DNA from: a virus
Lineage: Duplodnaviria > Heunggongvirae > Uroviricota > Caudoviricetes
Reading direction: 5' to 3' (one strand)
Virus record (IMG/VR): IMGVR_UViG_2541047681_000005
Length of the DNA stretch: 12,615 nt
How positions within the stretch are numbered: the stretch's first letter is position 1; each line of letters begins with the position of its first letter. Of this stretch, positions 1 through 12,615 are shown in pieces. Below the pieces are notes generated by a model. The model saw nothing but the letters and a program-made list of their open reading frames with translations, did not search any database and had not been told where the DNA came from. A program made the position numbers and the translations under genes.

Positions 1-1230
1 ATGCGCAGAGCACTTAACAAACTGAGTGATACACAGCTAAGGAAAATCAACGGCACACCCGCCCAAAAAACAGCCTTTCTTAATGACGGTGGAAACCTGA
101 GCGTCAGGCATTCAACCAGCGGCCTTTTAACCTGGTATTTCACCTACAGGGCCGGAACGGGAAGGGGAGCACGACCGGAACGGATTAAGCTGGGAAATTA
201 TCCTGATCTGAGTCTGAAAGCTGCCAGGGAAAAAGCGGCACAGTGTCGCGCTTGGCTTGCTGAGGGGAAAAATCCACGTCATGAGATGAATTACACCGTA
301 CAGAAAGCGTTAAAGCCCGTAACGGTTGGCGATGCGCTTACCTACTGGCTTGAGTCTTACGTAAAGGAAAACCGCGTGGATTATGCCGCCCTGAAAAAGC
401 GCCTTAATAATCACGTAATACAGCACATTGGTGCTATGCCGCTGGATAAATGCGAGCTACGGCACTGGCTGGCCTGTTTTGACCAGGTGGCAAAGCGAAC
501 GCCTGTTACTGCCGGATTCTTGCTACAGACGTGCAAACAGGCGCTTAAGTTCTGCCGGAGGCGGCGCTATGCAATCAGCAACGTTCTTGATGATATGAGT
601 GTGGCGGACGTTGGGAAAAAACCGGATATAAGCGAGCGTGTCTTAAGCACCAAAGAACTTGGCGAATTATTGCAGGCACTGGACAAAAAAATATTTTCCC
701 CTTACTACGTCGCACTAATCCGCCTCCTGATTGTTTTCGGATGCCGGACGGTAGAACTGAGGTTATCGGAGATCAGCGAGTGGGATTTTACCGAAATGCT
801 CTGGACCGTGCCGAAAGAACACAGCAAAACGAAGGTGGCAATATTCCGGTCCATACCGGAAGCAATACTGCCGTTCGTCACGCAGCTGGTGGAGCAGAAC
901 AGGCACACGGGCTTATTGCTGGGGGAAGTGAAACAGGAAACAAGCGTGTCGCAGTACGGCAGATTAGCGCACAGGAGGCTAAAACACCCTCACTGGTCAC
1001 TGCATGACATCCGGCGCACCTTTACAACGATGCTGAACGATTTAGGCGTGGATCCTCACGTCGTGGAGCAGCTTACAGGTCATCAGATGCCAGGGATGCA
1101 ACGAGTCTATAACCATTCCCGTTATCTGGATGCGAAACGTGACGCGCTGGATATGTGGACGGAGCGGTTAGGGATACTGGCGGGAACACATGAAAACGTA
1201 ACCACATTGCCAATAGCCAGAGAAATATAA
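1..1230 (+). CDS. int: Tyrosine site-specific integrase, P4-type
   Basis: 409-aa ORF starting at window base 1. N-terminal arm-binding-like region (LNDGGNLSV...WYFTYR...LGNYPDLSLKAARE) and C-terminal catalytic region with HDIRRT (H-x-x-R) and a terminal VYNHSRY tyrosine motif. Upstream RBS not visible because the window starts at the ATG. Confidence 0.9.
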   Translation: MRRALNKLSDTQLRKINGTPAQKTAFLNDGGNLSVRHSTSGLLTWYFTYRAGTGRGARPERIKLGNYPDLSLKAAREKAAQCRAWLAEGKNPRHEMNYTVQKALKPVTVGDALTYWLESYVKENRVDYAALKKRLNNHVIQHIGAMPLDKCELRHWLACFDQVAKRTPVTAGFLLQTCKQALKFCRRRRYAISNVLDDMSVADVGKKPDISERVLSTKELGELLQALDKKIFSPYYVALIRLLIVFGCRTVELRLSEISEWDFTEMLWTVPKEHSKTKVAIFRSIPEAILPFVTQLVEQNRHTGLLLGEVKQETSVSQYGRLAHRRLKHPHWSLHDIRRTFTTMLNDLGVDPHVVEQLTGHQMPGMQRVYNHSRYLDAKRDALDMWTERLGILAGTHENVTTLPIAREI

Positions 1231-3795: not shown

Positions 3796-4095
3796 ATGAA
3801 ACTTAAATATTCTGGCTTAACTGCCAGTGGCAAAACTCGCACTAAATTCATGCGCGGTGATATTTACCGCGACCAGTACGGCGGCACGGTAATGATTAAG
3901 GGCGTGGAGGAACGGCGCGTAACCTACCGTCGTGAAGGCTACGAATATGATTGCGTGATGCCTGTTTATCAGTTCGATCGTGATTTTTCTCTGGTGCAGG
4001 CCGTACCGCGTAACGTGCCCACCAGCAGGGAGAAAGCACGCGCCAATATTCAGGAAATAAAAAAGATGCTTAACGTATTCAGGGGTAAGAAATGA
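3796..4095 (+). CDS. Hypothetical protein (99 aa)
   Basis: ATG at 3796 with RBS GGAGA 9 nt upstream; stop overlaps the primase start (ATGA). No family recognised. Confidence 0.55.
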   Translation: MKLKYSGLTASGKTRTKFMRGDIYRDQYGGTVMIKGVEERRVTYRREGYEYDCVMPVYQFDRDFSLVQAVPRNVPTSREKARANIQEIKKMLNVFRGKK

Positions 4096-5846
4096 AACTG
4101 GCACCGAACGTAAAAAAACAACCACGCGGAATAAAACACAAAGACACAGAGGTAATTATTTTCGCGGGTAGTGATGCGTGGTCACATGCAAAACAGTGGC
4201 AGGAGCAGGACGGCCCCGCATCCGGCGATAATGTGCCGCCTGTGTGGCTTGGGCCAAATCAGCTTGCCGAACTTGATGCGCTGAAAATTGTTCCGGATGG
4301 GAAAAAGCGCGTAAGGCTGTACCAGGCCGGAGAACTGGATTTAGTGGAGACCAAAAAGATTGGTCAGAAGCTGGCGGCGGCAGATATTCAGGACGCAAAT
4401 TTTTACCCTGATGGTATGCACGGTCAGAAGGTGGAGAACTGGCGCGAATATCTGGCCCGTGAGCGCCAGAATCTTTCTGATGGTCTGGTCATTGAGCTTC
4501 CGGTAAAGCAAAAGGCGCAACTTTCGCAGATGGCGGACAGTGAGCGCGCGCAGCTGCTTGCCGATCGCTTTGATGGCGTTTGCGTACATCCTGAAAGTGA
4601 AATCGTTCACGTATGGCGCGGCGGGGTATGGTGTCCGGTCAGCACAATGGAACTTAGCCGCGAAATGGTGGCGATCTATTCAGAGCACAGGGCCACTTTC
4701 AGCAAGCGCGTAATCAATAACGCCGTGGAAGCGTTAAAAGTTATTGCCGAACCAATGGGCGAGCCGTCCGGCGATTTGCTGCCGTTCGCCAATGGTGCGC
4801 TTGACCTGAAAACGGGGGAATTTTCCCCGCACACGCCGGAGAACTGGATCACCACGCACAACGGCATTGAGTACACGCCACCAGCACCAGGGGAGAACAT
4901 CCGCGATAACGCGCCAAACTTTCATAAATGGCTTAAGCACGCAGCCGGAAAAGACCCGCGCAAGATGATGCGTATATGTGCCGCGCTGTACATGATTATG
5001 GCGAACCGGTACGACTGGCAGATGTTTATTGAGGCCACCGGAGACGGCGGGAGCGGTAAAAGTACATTCACGCACATAGCCAGCCTTCTGGCAGGGAAAC
5101 AGAACACGGTAAGCGCTGAAATGACATCGCTTGATGATGCTGGTGGACGTGCGCAGGTTGTCGGGAGTCGTCTTATCGTCCTGGCTGACCAGCCGAAATA
5201 TACAGGCGAAGGAACGGGCATCAAGAAAATCACGGGCGGTGACCCCGTGGAAATTAACCCGAAATACGAAAAGCGTTTCACGGCTGTAATCAGGGCGGTG
5301 GTGCTGGCGACCAACAATAACCCGATGATATTCACCGAACGGGCCGGAGGTGTGGCACGTCGTCGCGTGATTTTCCGTTTCGACAATATCGTCAGTGAGG
5401 CCGAAAAAGACAGGGAGCTACCGGAAAAGATCGCGGCTGAAATCCCTGTCATTATCCGCCGATTGCTGGCGAACTTTACCGACCCTGAGAAGGCACGGGC
5501 TTTACTACTGGAACAGCGTGACGGTGATGAAGCACTGGCAATAAAGCAACAGACGGATCCGGTTATTGAGTTTTGCCAGTTCCTGAATTTTCTGGAGGAA
5601 GCGCGCGGCCTGATGATGGGGGGCGGTGGCGATTCAGTGAAGTACACGACCAGGAACAGCCTTTACCGCGTCTATCTGGCGTTTATGGCATACGCAGGCA
5701 GGAGCAAACCGCTAAACGTAAATGACTTTGGAAAGGCTATGAAGCCTGCCGCAAAAGTTTACGGACATGAATATATTACGCGGAAAGTTAAGGGGGTAAC
5801 GCAGACTAACGCAATAACAACAGACGAGTGCGACGCGTTTTTATAA
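4092..5846 (+). CDS. Replication primase/helicase, P4-alpha / D5-like family with P-loop NTPase domain
   Basis: 584-aa ORF with RBS AGGGG upstream; Walker A motif GDGGSGKST, followed by a hydrophobic strand (LIVLADQP) consistent with Walker B. Position after int-alpA and immediately before an iteron cluster matches satellite pri-rep genes. Confidence 0.9.
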   Translation: MKLAPNVKKQPRGIKHKDTEVIIFAGSDAWSHAKQWQEQDGPASGDNVPPVWLGPNQLAELDALKIVPDGKKRVRLYQAGELDLVETKKIGQKLAAADIQDANFYPDGMHGQKVENWREYLARERQNLSDGLVIELPVKQKAQLSQMADSERAQLLADRFDGVCVHPESEIVHVWRGGVWCPVSTMELSREMVAIYSEHRATFSKRVINNAVEALKVIAEPMGEPSGDLLPFANGALDLKTGEFSPHTPENWITTHNGIEYTPPAPGENIRDNAPNFHKWLKHAAGKDPRKMMRICAALYMIMANRYDWQMFIEATGDGGSGKSTFTHIASLLAGKQNTVSAEMTSLDDAGGRAQVVGSRLIVLADQPKYTGEGTGIKKITGGDPVEINPKYEKRFTAVIRAVVLATNNNPMIFTERAGGVARRRVIFRFDNIVSEAEKDRELPEKIAAEIPVIIRRLLANFTDPEKARALLLEQRDGDEALAIKQQTDPVIEFCQFLNFLEEARGLMMGGGGDSVKYTTRNSLYRVYLAFMAYAGRSKPLNVNDFGKAMKPAAKVYGHEYITRKVKGVTQTNAITTDECDAFL

Positions 5847-5860
5847 TTTTTTGTAATTGC

Positions 5861-6086
5861 TGTCTACCCTGTCTACCTGAGTAAAGAAAAATACATTTAA
5901 TTCAGTGCATTAAGTTAGGTAGACAGCCTTTTTTTACTGTCTACCCACTATCTACCCTCTCTACCTGATTTTACCTGAATCAGACAGGGAGGTAGACACG
6001 GGGTAGATAGTGGATAAAAGCACTCTACCCCGCTGAAAGCCGCGCCATTACTGGCATGAGGGCCACTAAGGTAGATAAGGTAGACA
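5861..6086. repeat. Iteron cluster, putative replication origin
   Basis: About 11 copies of the core TCTACC / GGTAGA in both orientations (TGTCTACC at 5861, 5870, 5938; ATCTACCC 5950; CTCTACC 5959 and 6023; GGTAGACA 5918, 5991, 6079; GGTAGATA 6002, 6070), with an AT-rich stretch at 5880..5915. Directly downstream of the primase stop. Confidence 0.7.
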
Positions 6087-7044: not shown

Positions 7045-7087
7045 TAAAAAAGCCCGATAAGGTCAGAGGTGGCTTATCGGGCTTTTG
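7045..7087. terminator. Bidirectional hairpin terminator candidate
   Basis: 11-bp perfect stem AGCCCGATAAG / CTTATCGGGCT with 11-nt loop, A-run upstream and T-run downstream. Confidence 0.5.
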
Positions 7088-8869: not shown

Positions 8870-9283
8870 ATGGCAACGAATGAAAGCGTCATGACGCTAC
8901 CGCTGGCGAGTAAATTTAAAGCCGAAGCGCGGGCAATGGCTGACAGAGGTTTATCAACCTACGAGGCCGTATATCAACTCAACAAACTGGAAGAGCAGGA
9001 CAAGCCGCGCGCTGATGCGATTATGGCGCTTCATGAACATAACGACTATCAGCCGCTGTTACGTGCAATGGCAAACGTGCCATGTATTAGCGTCGATAAT
9101 GCTCGTGAAATCCTGAACATGACCATAGAGCAGGAGCGCCCAAAGGTTGCGCCGGAGCTTACCGCAGCCTTTGAAAACTTTATGGACATGCACAGCCCGA
9201 AAGCCGTATCACCCGGCATGGCATACGACGGCAGAAACCAGGGCGATGAAGGCGACGTCGATCGCATACTGAAAACCATCTGA
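8870..9283 (+). CDS. Hypothetical protein (137 aa), last gene before cos
   Basis: ATG at 8870 with RBS AGGGGGA; followed by a strong terminator. No clear similarity to lambda FI or other remembered head proteins. Confidence 0.6.
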   Translation: MATNESVMTLPLASKFKAEARAMADRGLSTYEAVYQLNKLEEQDKPRADAIMALHEHNDYQPLLRAMANVPCISVDNAREILNMTIEQERPKVAPELTAAFENFMDMHSPKAVSPGMAYDGRNQGDEGDVDRILKTI

Positions 9284-9289
9284 CATAAG

Positions 9290-9312
9290 GCCGGAGAAAT
9301 CCGGCTTTTTTT
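9290..9312 (+). terminator. Rho-independent terminator after the capsid operon
   Basis: Hairpin GCCGGA-GAAA-TCCGGC followed by seven T (9306..9312); near-identical to the hairpin at 6849..6870. Confidence 0.75.
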
Positions 9313-9445
9313 ACGGGTCCTTTCCGGCATATGGACCCGTTACGGGGCGGCGACCTCGCGGGTTTTCGCTATTTATGACGTTTTTCCGTGAAGGTGACAC
9401 CACCACCACTTGATTAATATTTAACCATGCGGTTAAGGTAACATT
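9313..9445 (+). other. Lambda-type cos site (cosQ-like, cosN, short cosB) upstream of the TerS-like gene
   Basis: TACGGGTCCTTTCCGG...GTTACG|GGGCGGCGACCTCGCGGGTTTTCGCTATTTATGA closely matches the lambda cohesive-end region as remembered. Predicted 12-nt cohesive end GGGCGGCGACCT at 9345..9356. One R-site-like element (CGTTTTTCCGTG, about 9381..9392) and an AT-rich stretch follow. Confidence 0.75.
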
Positions 9446-9886
9446 ATGATTGATAAAGCTTGTTTTGTAAGTCAGCAGGAAATAGCTGAACATTTCAAGG
9501 TTAACAGAACCACTATTCGCGCATGGACCAAACAGGGGATGCCGTATCTTAATGCGGATCGCGGAAAGTCTGGCGGTTATCACATCGGGCATACATTGCT
9601 TTGGTCTTCAGGTAAAAGCCGTCTTGAGGCCATCAGATATCACGTAGAAACCAGTGCGCTGGAAAAAATTATGTTTGCCAGGCTGCTTTCATCTGAGCGT
9701 GACGAGTACTCCAGTGAAGAAACAGAACATCGATTTGATGAAGGTTTGCAGATTTACGGCTATTCACCGGAAGATGTGAGCAAGGCACGAAATAAAATGG
9801 CTGGCTTTCTGGCTGGGTGGCGTCATGCCGTAAGCGTTCGCCGTGCCAGCATGGAACAATCAGTCGTTACAGAACAGCAAAGTTAA
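9446..9886 (+). CDS. Small terminase-like protein, lambda Nu1-type DNA-binding N-terminus with divergent C-terminus (TerS/Rpp-like)
   Basis: 146-aa ORF about 90 bp downstream of cosN, as Nu1 is in lambda. N-terminus QQEIAEHFKVNRTTIRAWTKQGMPYL aligns with Nu1 KKQLADIFGASIRTIQNWQEQGMPVL (winged HTH). Shorter than Nu1 (181 aa) and the C-terminal region does not resemble Nu1's. Confidence 0.7.
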   Translation: MIDKACFVSQQEIAEHFKVNRTTIRAWTKQGMPYLNADRGKSGGYHIGHTLLWSSGKSRLEAIRYHVETSALEKIMFARLLSSERDEYSSEETEHRFDEGLQIYGYSPEDVSKARNKMAGFLAGWRHAVSVRRASMEQSVVTEQQS

Positions 9887-9915
9887 AAATCACTTTCTGT
9901 TACGCCATCAAATAC

Positions 9916-10012
9916 GCAATACAACAACCACGTATTTTTTTAAAACTATTTGATTCAATTAGCATTTTTTTATTTTTAGCATCAAAAAAACACTATCAGG
10001 TTGTTGTATTGC
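9916..10012. repeat. 14-bp perfect inverted repeat flanking a 69-bp AT-rich spacer
   Basis: GCAATACAACAACC (9916..9929) and its reverse complement GGTTGTTGTATTGC (9999..10012); a further direct ACAACAACC copy lies near 10060. Spacer contains T/A runs and repeated TAGCATTTTT. Confidence 0.55.
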
Positions 10013-10090
10013 TCTTTATTTTTACTTAGTTATCAAATGGATATGACAAACAATTAAACAACAACCTCCCTCTAAAAAAGCTCATAAATA

Positions 10091-10145
10091 GCGAAAAACC
10101 GCGAGGTCGCCGCCCCGTAACGGGCCATAATTCCAGGAAGGACCC
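10091..10145 (-). other. Second cos-like sequence in inverted orientation (cosQ/cosN-like, no recognisable cosB)
   Basis: Reverse complement of 10091..10145 reads CGGGTCCTTCCTGGAATTATGGCCCGTTACGGGGCGGCGACCTCGCGGTTTTTCGCTATTTATGA, about 85% identical to cos at 9313..9380 including an intact GGGCGGCGACCT. No R-site-like element or TerS gene follows it on the minus strand. Confidence 0.6.
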
Positions 10146-10179
10146 GACGACACCAGACTATCAGAACGATGGGGGCACA

Positions 10180-10461
10180 ATGACAGAAGCCGAAATACTG
10201 CGATTAATCCGCCGCGTTGCCGGAATCAGCCAGCAGCATGACGAACAGGCCACGCAGCCGGACAGCGTGACCGCTGAAAATTATGTGCGTGTTGTTGCTG
10301 AGGTGATGCGCCGTGATGGTATCCAGCTTAATGATGTTGATATGCGCGACATACGGATCCGCGTTCTGGAAATGCTGGCCTACAATCGCCGCGTTGAACT
10401 GTATCGGGAGAAAGAAAAAATAACGTACCACTGGAAGAAGCCGGAGCGGTTGCGGCGGTAA
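10180..10461 (+). CDS. Hypothetical protein (93 aa)
   Basis: ATG at 10180 with RBS GGGGGC upstream; charged product (MTEAEILRLIRRVAG...). No family recognised. Whether it belongs to the satellite or the junction region is unresolved. Confidence 0.5.
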   Translation: MTEAEILRLIRRVAGISQQHDEQATQPDSVTAENYVRVVAEVMRRDGIQLNDVDMRDIRIRVLEMLAYNRRVELYREKEKITYHWKKPERLRR

Positions 10462-11154
10462 CTGGTTGATATTTTCGAAATTCGCCAGCGGCGAACATCG
10501 GGGAAACCAGCCTAACCCGTTGATATTTTCGGAAACCTCAATTTGAGGAAGTCGGCGCGGTAACTCGCTGAACTTAAAGCAAAGCGCAAAATTGCGCTTG
10601 CTGAATAATCATTATGATTACGCAGATGATTAAGGAATGACCGAAGGCGGAAATTCGCCTGTGGTTAATGGGGGAGTTGCAGATCTGCAACTCGACCATG
10701 AAACTACGGAAACTACCCGTAGTTTGGGTAGTAAGAGTAACACCCAGATTTTGGGGCTTACTCGTGATACCCAAATTTGGGGTATCGGTGGCAACCATAA
10801 CGACTTTCGTTACGGTTGATGCTTTTACCCCATTGGGGGAAAGGTATTACGATAATCATAACACCTACCGAACAGGTAAAGCCCACCAGCCTGATTAACG
10901 TTTAACCGGAAAAAAATTCCGGTAGGTGGGGATCCCCATATAGACATTAACGCCCCTCATGAATTGGTGCGCTTCCCCCTGGAAAGATGATCCGCCTGTA
11001 TATTTCTTGTGTCTATTTGTTCCACGTTGTTTCATACGGTGCACCGAACGGTGTAGTTAATGGTGTAGTCAATTTGCGATTTTTGGCACTTTTTCAGTGT
11101 AGATTATTTAATTAAATCAATGGTTTGTCTTGATATAGTGATAAAAGGACATAT
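10462..11154. other. Palindrome-dense non-coding tract between the last satellite ORF and phoQ (possible attR region or structured RNA)
   Basis: No convincing ORF. Direct repeat TAAC-nGTTGATATTTTCG-AAA at about 10459 and 10513. Hairpin-forming palindromes roughly every 30 bp, e.g. AAGCGCAAAATTGCGCTT, GTTGCAGATCTGCAAC, GATACCCAAATTTGGGGTATC, CCGGAAAAAAATTCCGG, TGGGGATCCCCA, CGGTGCACCG. Tandem GGTGTAGT(T/C)AAT at 11050..11073. Confidence 0.4.
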
Positions 11155-12615
11155 TTATTCATCTTTCGGCGCAGAATGCTGGCGACCAAAAATCACTTCC
11201 ATCCGCGCACCGCCCAGCATGCTCTCTCCGGCGACGATTTTACCCTCATATTGCTCGGTGATTTCGCGGGCTACCGCCAGCCCCACACCTTGCCCAGGGC
11301 GTAAAGTATCAACCCGTTGACCACGGTCGAAAATGACCTCTCGCTTGCTTAATGGAATACCGGGGCCATCATCCTCGACCACAATATAGAGATGCTCGTC
11401 GGTTTGCCTTGCAGAAATTTCGACAAACTCGAGGCAATATTTACAGGCGTTATCCAGCACGTTGCCCATCACTTCGACAAAATCATTCTGCTCACCAACA
11501 AAGCTGATTTCTGGCGAGATATCGAGAGAGATATTGACCCCTTTGCGTTGATACACTTTGTTCAGCGCCGAGGTGAGATTGTCCAACAGTGGCGCGACCG
11601 GATGCAGCTCGCGGCTAAGCAATGTCCCGCCGCGCATACTGGCACGATGCAGGTAGTAGCCAATTTGCTGTGAAATGCGGCTGATTTGCTCCAGCATTAC
11701 CGGCTCAGCATCACTGACGCTCATCTTCTCACTACGCAGAGAACGCAGCGTACTTTGCAGCACCGCCAGTGGCGTTTTCAGACTATGGGTCAGGTCGGTG
11801 AGCGTTGTACGATATTTGTCGTAACGTTCGCGTTCACTTTTTAACAGTCGGTTCAGGTTTCGTACCAGACTGGTCAGTTCTCGCGTTGTGGCTGGATTGA
11901 GCAATTCACGGTTATGTTCTTCCAGTTCGCGGACTTCTTTTGCCAGGGCTTCGATGGGGCGTAAACTCCACCAGGCGGCGACCCACAGCAGCGGGATCAC
12001 TAACAGCAGATTGGCTGAGAGCACATAGATAAACCAGCTCCAGACCATATAGGAACTTTTTAGCTCCACCGGAATGGTATCCACCACCACAATGGTTAAC
12101 TTTGGCATCCGCGATGTTGCCGGGTAGACGTTTACCGCCACCGAGTGGGTCATCTCCGCGTCGTCATCATCTTCCCGCACTTCCTGCAACTGTTGCTGTA
12201 TCGAATGATCTCCACTCAGCAAGAGGCTGGTATCGTTAACATCCGCTTCAATTTCATGAAAACCATTCGATTTCAGCCAGTCAGGCTGGATCATCTTCAT
12301 CAGCCAGGGCACGTCACGTTGCGCCCATAAAAGCTGCCCGTTCTCATCATAAATTAGTGTCATCGTGGGGCTTTGCTTGTCGATATTTTCGGGTAACTCG
12401 ACATGCAACTTATTGTTTTCCCACTTCGCAAGGGTATAGAACAGATTGCTCTCGCCACGTAACAGCCGAAACGTGGTTTTATCGAAACTGACGCTATAAC
12501 CGATCAGCGCAACCATTCCGTAGGCAAGCGAAAGCACCAATACTACTGCTGCCGTTGCTAACAGAAAACGTACCCGCAGCGAGAGCGGGAAAAAAAGATG
12601 CAGTAATTTTTTCAT
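11155..12615 (-). CDS. phoQ: Sensor histidine kinase PhoQ (PhoP/PhoQ two-component system), complete
   Basis: 486-aa minus-strand ORF whose ATG is the last codon of the window. Two transmembrane segments, periplasmic acidic cluster EDDDDAE, H-box [15 protein letters not shown] and G-box DDGPGIP; reads as full-length Escherichia/Shigella-type PhoQ. Confidence 0.97.

Follow-up and report, generated by a model that had tools for sequence, protein, structure and literature searches.

In lambda-like phages, the sites of cosB normally follow each other as R3-I1-R2-R1, and R2 points the other way from R3 and R1 (Murialdo and Feiss, PMC9026076). The cosB of N15 is simple, with R3 only and a remote rR2 inside gene 1, and with no I1, R2 or R1. 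Its R3 occupies bp 48-59 and was mapped by the block mutations m1 and m2: the N15 yield was about 7 fold lower when GAGGTT (bp 48-53) was scrambled, and about 100 fold lower when GTTGTT (bp 54-59) was scrambled (Feiss et al. 2015, PMC4669245). The same paper describes a group of N15-like prophages, Monarch, that has a strong match to N15 R3 and a TerS with the N15 recognition helix, together with a tripartite cosB made of three R sequences, R2 being inverted, and of an IHF site between R3 and R2 (PMC4669245). We analysed a stretch of 12,615 nucleotides (virus record IMGVR_UViG_2541047681_000005, called the window below for its whole length), which is a phage-inducible chromosomal island (PICI) of the EcCICFT073 type, RppA-type, with a pair of cos sites (cos1 and cos2) in convergent orientation. 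A 14-bp inverted repeat at 9916-10012, on the cosB side of cos2, most probably consists of R2 and R1 of a Monarch-type cosB with N15 packaging specificity, a third copy of its core being R3 (probability about 0.85, as judged from sequence comparisons). This is a known kind of element, whose location, in the second, inverted cos of an E. coli phage-parasitic island, was previously unrecognised.

The inverted repeat and the layout of cos2

The left arm of the repeat, GCAATACAACAACC, and its exact reverse complement, GGTTGTTGTATTGC, were read directly from the sequence (coordinates in Table 1). They enclose a spacer of 69 bp that is 81% A+T, in a window that is 49% G+C overall, and that holds runs of T7, T7, T5 and A7. 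The 9-mer ACAACAACC is found a third time at 10058-10066, oriented like the left arm, and the three exact copies are the only ones in the whole 12.6-kb window. An earlier note, made from the letters of this DNA, had described the perfect repeat, its AT-rich spacer with T and A runs and a direct copy near 10060, and had placed them between a TerS-like gene and an inverted copy of cos. Coordinates and composition were as it claimed, the direct copy is exact over 9 nucleotides, and the location is correct, with the gene on one side and cosN cores on both. The gene, however, is rppA: its product does have a TerS-like N-terminal helix-turn-helix, but is no terminase subunit.

Taken by itself, a 14-bp inverted repeat is only moderately unusual: among 300 dinucleotide-preserving shuffles of the window, 6 had a perfect one of 14 bp or longer whose loop did not exceed 150 bp. 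We took it as real because a third copy exists, because the distances to cosN are fixed, and because it is conserved in other genomes.

Positions were counted from the cos2 nick on the minus strand (bp n, below). Read in this way, the cores of R3, R2 and R1 have the orientations +, − and +, and cos2 agrees with lambda and phage 21 in order, in relative orientation, and in the distance from the nick of R3, I1 and R2. In lambda, R3 is at bp 53-59 (+), the I1 match at 79-91 (−), R2 at 114-120 (−) and R1 at 155-161 (+); in phage 21, the corresponding sites are at 54-60 (+), 74-86 (−), 112-118 (−) and 154-160 (+). The R3 core of cos2 (bp 50-58) thus lies about where lambda, phage 21 and N15 (bp 48-59) have theirs. 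For lambda, we used a left-end sequence that has 100% identity to J02459 over bp 1-211, and the phage 21 sites are also annotated in the GenBank record, with I1 at record positions 238-252, that is bp 72-86. R2 and R1 of the island are identical over 14 bp, and the flanks of R3 differ, which is also the case in lambda. The perfect inverted repeat made by R2 and R1 is 16 bp long in lambda, with 26 bp between its arms, compared to 14 bp and 69 bp in the island. By its layout, the 14-bp repeat is therefore the R2/R1 feature of lambda with a longer spacer. The R sequence itself is unrelated (CGTTTCC in lambda, ATGTCGG in phage 21, GGTTGTTGT in the island), and the TerS recognition helix is likewise unrelated.

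The sequence match was found with N15 instead. From bp 48 to 63, cos2 (GAGGTTGTTGTTTAAT) is identical to N15 bp 48-63 at 16 of 16 positions, ungapped and at an equal distance from cosN, and this includes all 12 positions of the R3 12-mer. The cohesive end of N15 differs from that of lambda at bp 9 and 12. We assigned cos2 to a Monarch-type cosB with N15 specificity because of this identity and because the TerS of the prophages described below shares the N15 helix. The Monarch features are all seen in the window or in its phage homologues, the comparison with Monarch being made with the published description only. A difference is that the Monarch cosB precedes a TerS gene, whereas the island one ends, in a satellite island, at the stop codon of the convergent rppA. 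In the island window, no TerS gene follows the cosB of cos2, which abuts the 3′ end of rppA. In alignments with prophages, the segment present in the island has cosQ as one exact boundary and the ribosome-binding region of TerS as the other.

Two IHF-like sites were found in cos2. The first lies between R3 and R2, as I1 does, and its position and strand (bp 73-85, −) agree with the lambda match and with I1 of phage 21; the second (AATCAAATAGTTT on the minus strand, at 9943-9955) is in the spacer of the repeat. Both are kept in the phage homologues. Each has one mismatch to the consensus. Predicted IHF sites with one mismatch are common by chance, and only the positional agreement with lambda and phage 21 is informative. 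The earlier note had suggested a bent-DNA or IHF-type architectural site, and IHF-binding prediction as a check. This holds in so far as the repeat is architectural, belongs to the inverted cos copy as the distal portion of its cosB, and has an IHF-like core in its spacer, but the arms themselves are not IHF sites.

Table 1. Features of cos2, cos1 and rppA in the window (bp, distance from the nick of the cos concerned)
Feature	Position	Strand	bp from nick	Remarks
R3 of cos2, GAGGTTGTTGTT	10057..10068	-	48-59 (core 50-58, + relative to cos2)	contains the third 9-mer copy; identical to N15 bp 48-59, ungapped
I1-like IHF site, TATCAAATGGATA	10031..10043	+	73-85	between R3 and R2; one mismatch to WATCAANNNNTTR
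R2 of cos2 (right arm of inverted repeat)	9999..10012	-	core 109-117	reversed with respect to R3 and R1
A+T-rich R2-R1 spacer, 69 bp	9930..9998	-		IHF-consensus-like core at bp 161-173, one mismatch
R1 of cos2 (left arm), minus-strand reading GGTTGTTGTATTGC	9916..9929	-	core 187-195	aligned in prophages with an element some 41 bp upstream of the start codon of TerS
cosN cohesive end of cos2, GGGCGGCGACCT	10104..10115	-		exact match
cosQ-like site of cos2, CGGGTCCTTCC	10136..10146	-		homology to phage cos regions starts here
rppA (redirecting phage packaging protein, 146 aa)	9446..9886	+		PDB 6HLK RppC match, E 5.7e-31
cosQ-like site of cos1, TTTACGGGTCCTTTCC	9310..9325	+		agrees with the cosQ of lambda, phage 80 and EcCICFT073 as printed (Fig S1A, PMC6739421)
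cosN cohesive end of cos1, GGGCGGCGACCT	9345..9356	+		exact match; surroundings essentially identical to published EcCICFT073 cos1
Proposed R3-PICI of cos1, ACCACCACC	9399..9407	+	55-63	presumed Rpp-TerS target; proposal from PMC9026076

Prophage homologues and their TerS

The 204-bp cosB segment matched 303 E. coli genomes, 58 of them at 80-100% identity and 245 at 60-80%. In the first group, every match inspected proved to be an island of this family with a different integration site; conservation across related islands was a check proposed in the earlier note. In the 60-80% band, the five matches inspected are lambdoid prophages with a cosB 75-78% identical to that of the island, placed between the lysis cassette and the TerS gene, and followed by TerL, gpW-like and portal genes. 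Homology between island and phages starts at cosQ and ends in the TerS ribosome-binding region. The blocks conserved in the alignments are GGTTGTTGTTTAATTGTTT (R3), ATACAACAACCT (R2) and GGTTGTTGTAT (R1), to which TTGATAA (I1 region) and ATCAAATGGTTTT (spacer) can be added. In a conservation profile of 47 unique phage cos regions, the R blocks were highest and the R2-R1 spacer lowest (0.99 versus 0.88); R2 was the most conserved block of the phage alignment, with a mean column identity of 0.986. A DNA search of the phage collection with the cos2 region matched known phages by the cosN part only, and the repeat region was found in no deposited phage at blastn sensitivity; the link of this cosB to phages came from the E. 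coli prophages and from the N15 literature.

The TerS of these prophages was assigned to the Nu1 family because of its Pfam match (PF07471 Phage_Nu1, E about 1e-21) and its 48% overall identity to N15 gp1. A search of PDB sequences with it gave no significant match (E = 0.9 for lambda TerS). The C-terminal parts of the five proteins diverge, the most divergent being 73% identical overall, and the first 50 residues are almost invariant (MAFLLNKSDMASSIGISVQAFDKWGVPPVERRGREV). They differ from lambda and phage 21 in the region of the recognition helix, which reads SSIGISVQAFDKWGV in the prophage TerS versus SSLGISVQAFDKWGV in N15, the SVQAFDKWGV helix of N15 being shared. All prophage TerS that were checked have the N15 recognition helix.

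We then looked at larger sets of loci. A pattern search for the three 9-mers at the observed spacings returned 110 loci, in which the next gene encoded a TerS with the same DNA-binding domain (84 loci), a convergent rpp (15) or a truncated rpp (11). The gap between R3 and R2 was 50 bp in 108 of the 110, and the gap between R2 and R1 was 69 bp in 88 and 57 bp in the other 22. As the search required the 9-mers, these loci are unusable as a test of their conservation. Conversely, TerS loci were chosen by protein similarity, down to 71% identity: all 78 had the three elements, with at most one mismatch in each and at fixed distances from the start codon, and the first 50 TerS residues were nearly invariant among them. 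Phage PhiR12_2 makes a natural control for the pairing of R element and TerS N-terminus. Its TerS is about 69% identical over residues 25-168, with an unrelated N-terminus, and its cosB has CATGTCCGGTT-type repeats at the corresponding positions (bp 51-60, +; 108-117, −; 138-147, −).

Proposed role of cos2 and other explanations

The mechanism that we propose is based on what was observed, namely the anatomy, the homology, the strict association with a single TerS DNA-binding domain and the identity to a genetically defined TerS site. Its steps, including the docking of a TerS dimer across the I1 bend, are drawn by analogy with lambda. A helper phage with an N15/Monarch-type TerS (N-terminus MAFLLNKSDMASSIGISVQAFDKWGV) would replicate, and a dimer of its TerS would bind R3 together with R2, spanning a bend induced by IHF; R1 would be an accessory site, as it is in lambda. 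Docked TerS would anchor TerL, leading to the nick at the cosN of cos2, and packaging would proceed toward lower coordinates, taking in the repeat, then rppA, then the remaining concatemer. In this scheme, cos2 would be a helper-native packaging signal independent of Rpp, and cos1 (9345) the one that depends on Rpp-TerS. The cos sites being inverted, a terminase translocating from one would presumably, by the established lambda model, meet the other wrongly oriented for cosQ-dependent termination.

EcCICFT073 (Fillol-Salom et al. 2018, 2019) has the cos1 and the RppA of the window, and its cos2 is likewise placed 3′ of rppA in inverted orientation, with a near-identical cosQ-cosN half. The cosB of this cos2, however, is a different cassette, with CATGTCCGGTT repeats, homologous to the cosB that precedes TerS in PhiR12_2 and in a prophage of O157:H7, where the TerS N-terminus is of another kind. 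Transfer of EcCICFT073 is supported by each of its two cos sites, and only the cosB of cos1 is acted on by RppA. The published work compared EcCICFT073 cos2 only with lambda and phage 80, reported no phage cosB at either cos site, and left open the purpose of the second cos (Fillol-Salom et al.). Only the rpp-proximal cos is treated by Murialdo and Feiss 2022 (PMC9026076), and a preprint from another group describes a 258-bp cos-region identity between one satellite and its helper.

To compare cos2 between islands, 23 RppA loci were picked by protein from IMG/VR. Their RppA proteins are 82-100% identical (at least 95% in 19 of the 23). A cos2 was present in all of them, with the N15/Monarch-type cassette in 12 and the PhiR12/O157-type in 11, and the cos1 element ACCACCACC was present in 22. 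Near-identical RppA (95-100%) adjoin either of the two unrelated types of cos2 cosB, the cos1 element remaining constant. Among the islands inspected one by one, integration sites were roxA/phoQ, clpS, yejO, and the inside of a prophage TerL gene. The presence in cos2 of RppA islands of either of two native phage cosB cassettes, next to a constant cos1, appears to be new.

We tentatively suggest, at somewhat less than even odds, that cos2 is an exchangeable cassette with the native cosB of helper groups (N15/Monarch-type, PhiR12/O157-type) whose TerS DNA-binding domains differ from the lambda/21/80 type mimicked by Rpp. There would then be two routes into capsids, by cos1 with Rpp-TerS and by cos2 with unmodified TerS, and a wider range of helpers; cassettes would be swapped by recombination with phages at the conserved cosN. 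As a hypothesis only, cos2 may give an Rpp-independent access to helpers whose TerS Rpp may not pair with. Once recognised, the cosB element itself is ordinary, being lambda-style and with a recognition sequence already genetically mapped in N15. What matters more is that cos2 looks like a complete phage-native packaging signal, of at least two interchangeable specificity types, beside a constant, Rpp-dependent cos1. If true, the two-route reading answers the question of why EcCICFT073-type islands carry a second cos, and offers a concrete hypothesis for a wider set of phages spreading islands that carry virulence genes. The predicted helpers are N15/Monarch-type phages for the island of the window, and phages of the PhiR12/O157-prophage type for EcCICFT073.

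Several points weigh against the assignment of the repeat to a cosB with N15 specificity, or against its use by the island. IHF consensus matches with one mismatch are not enriched across the window (16 found for 13 expected), and the role of R1 is uncertain, given a spacing to R2 of 69 bp compared to 26 bp in lambda. The phage set is closely related (88-99% column identity), so that conservation alone discriminates weakly. The island itself encodes no N15-type TerS. Of the genomes having this cos2 type at 95% identity or more, 3 out of 35 had a second cosB copy, which could belong to a resident helper, and about 4.5% of all genomes hold a matching prophage, hence no clear enrichment in co-residence. 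The cosQ of the island cos2, CCTTCCTGG, deviates from the phage consensus, CCTTTCCGG. Finally, when cos2 was deleted from EcCICFT073, an island with the other cos2 type, transfer by lambda and phage 80 went up instead of down (Fillol-Salom et al.), so that a positive role of cos2 is a prediction only, as are its binding and packaging.

Part of these observations would be accounted for if cos2 were a relic, left from recombination between the island and a lambdoid phage, with R elements that are real by descent and useless to the island. The effect of the deletion, the rarity of a co-resident matching prophage and the deviating cosQ all go in this direction, as does the fact that cos2 is not stimulated by RppA. 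Nevertheless, the module is trimmed precisely to cosQ-cosN-R3-I1-R2-R1 with every subsite intact, and it is kept in islands at varied integration sites. It is present in all 23 RppA loci that could be examined, as one of two complete phage-type cassettes, and is intact even where rpp is truncated. Moreover, the helpers tested in the literature lacked the matching specificity. We therefore consider a relic unlikely.

The cosB of the island might also be a decoy, titrating the TerS or terminase of the helper or provoking unproductive cutting, and so lowering helper packaging. PICIs are known for interference with helper packaging, cos2 is costly with non-cognate helpers, and, as it faces cos1, cutting at both sites would excise a 760-bp segment with rppA. 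Still, a complete cos with cosQ, cosN and the correct spacing exceeds the needs of a titration site, and the cloned EcCICFT073 cos2 permits plasmid transduction, which makes us regard this explanation as quite improbable.

A binding site specific to the island, for Rpp or for the Rpp-TerS heterodimer, is an explanation to which we give very little credit. The repeats do adjoin rppA, Rpp has a TerS-like winged helix-turn-helix, and the R elements of PICI cosB were previously unidentified. Against this, the three elements are found upstream of TerS in prophages without rpp, where they track the TerS N-terminus; near-identical RppA proteins go with either type of cos2 cosB, with ACCACCACC of cos1 constant; and published cosB swaps place the specificity of RppA at cos1.

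An origin or a site for recombination is thus as unlikely as a site for Rpp, and an element unrelated to cos (RNA hairpin or terminator after rppA, replication or unwinding element, integrase or recombination site, or chance repeat) is hardly credible: the 14-nt stem does fold better as RNA than shuffles (z = −3.15), the spacer is A+T-rich and a comparable repeat occurs in 2% of shuffles, but the loop is 69 nt with no T-run after the stem, no terminator- or promoter-like site at the repeat and no Rfam match were found (the sole terminator-like match in 9700-10300 falls on cosN, at 10102-10117), the motif is nowhere else in the island, the same repeats lie inside a prophage late operon where a terminator would be harmful, the origin, which was not located in the window, is expected 3′ of the primase gene by the published layout, and att junctions are expected at the island ends, the window running from int to phoQ. 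Accordingly, the second unwinding element and the recombination site that the earlier note had also envisaged found no support, the arms being copies of an R element that occurs, three times and with the spacing seen in the island, directly upstream of prophage TerS genes.

The island, its two cos sites and neighbouring features

The island is inserted between roxA and phoQ in E. coli. Its genes include an integrase, a primase (4092-5846), an SSB, a lambda-E-type major capsid protein and a D-type decoration protein. The first 50 residues of RppA are identical to those of the RppA of Fig S1 (PMC6739421), and its N-terminal helix-turn-helix matches TerS phrog_57. Upstream of rppA, the cos1 stretch from 9310 to 9445 matches the published EcCICFT073 cos1. 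The exact cosN core GGGCGGCGACCTCG is found at 9345-9358 (+) and at 10102-10115 (−), so that cos1 and cos2 are convergent, with rppA between them. The repeat sits in the 293-bp gap that separates the rppA stop codon from the next gene. A likeness of the cos1 element ACCACCACC to ACAACAACC was set aside, because the two have opposite strand orientations relative to their respective cosN.

Comparison of the two cos sites between islands gave some further observations. The cosQ of cos2 is CGGGTCCTTCCTGG in the window and in four other aligned island loci (L007-L009, L012), and CGGGTCCTTTCCGG in phages, in cos1 of the window and in cos1 of L012, which is a CFT073-like island. The cosN variant is common to cos1 and cos2 of any one island, and this includes a single-base variant; L217, for instance, has GGGCGTCGACCT at both. 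In the TUM9812 and ETEC1732 islands, an alternative cosN class (…CGGGGGT…ACGCGCAAAAACGCGC) is present at both sites, though the 12-nt cores differ between sites. Sharing of the variant may result from gene conversion between inverted copies, or from a match to the TerL of one helper. The TUM9812 island (L196, NZ_CP128926.1 2824000-2842000) sits within the TerL gene of a lambdoid prophage, which has a third type of cosB, with GATCCKTTCTTC three times in the R3/R2/R1 layout, and a phage 21-like TerS. That cos2 copies the cos of the helper hosting the island was rejected in this case, as the host prophage and the island cos2 have different cosB types.

Among 26 island loci with the N15-type cos2, rpp is internally truncated in 11 (L007, L015, L018, L020, L031, L038, L040, L069, L088, L089 and L110). 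In these, the distance from the start of cos2 R3 to the inverted cosN of cos1 is 474-576 bp, compared to 710 bp in the window, and both cos sites are kept.

Directly past the cosQ side of cos2, the window encodes a conserved protein of 93 aa (10180-10461) of a family with no assigned function (phrog_1561, E 3e-57), and a gene for 93-94 aa is annotated at the equivalent position in the other islands inspected. On the other side, between the decoration-protein gene and cos1, there is a 137-aa protein (8870-9283) whose match to head maturation protease profiles (phrog_53, E 2e-9) is in their C-terminal part; it has its own family, phrog_1999, and may be a scaffold-like fragment.

Other repeats were noted in the window. 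A 14-bp perfect inverted repeat with an 11-nt loop (7048-7061 / 7073-7086) lies upstream of the capsid gene cluster and could be a terminator or an operator. Just 3′ of the primase gene, where the origin is expected from the published layout of such islands, there is a 13-bp perfect inverted repeat (5945-5957 / 6001-6013). Finally, 22-nt direct repeats, TAACYSGTTGATATTTTCGRAA, are present at 10459-10480 and 10513-10534, each with a perfect IHF consensus, and perfect IHF consensus sites were also found near the phoQ end, at 11115-11127, just outside phoQ, and at 11307-11319, inside the phoQ reading frame. Together with the 22-nt repeats, these sites may be part of an attachment-site arm.

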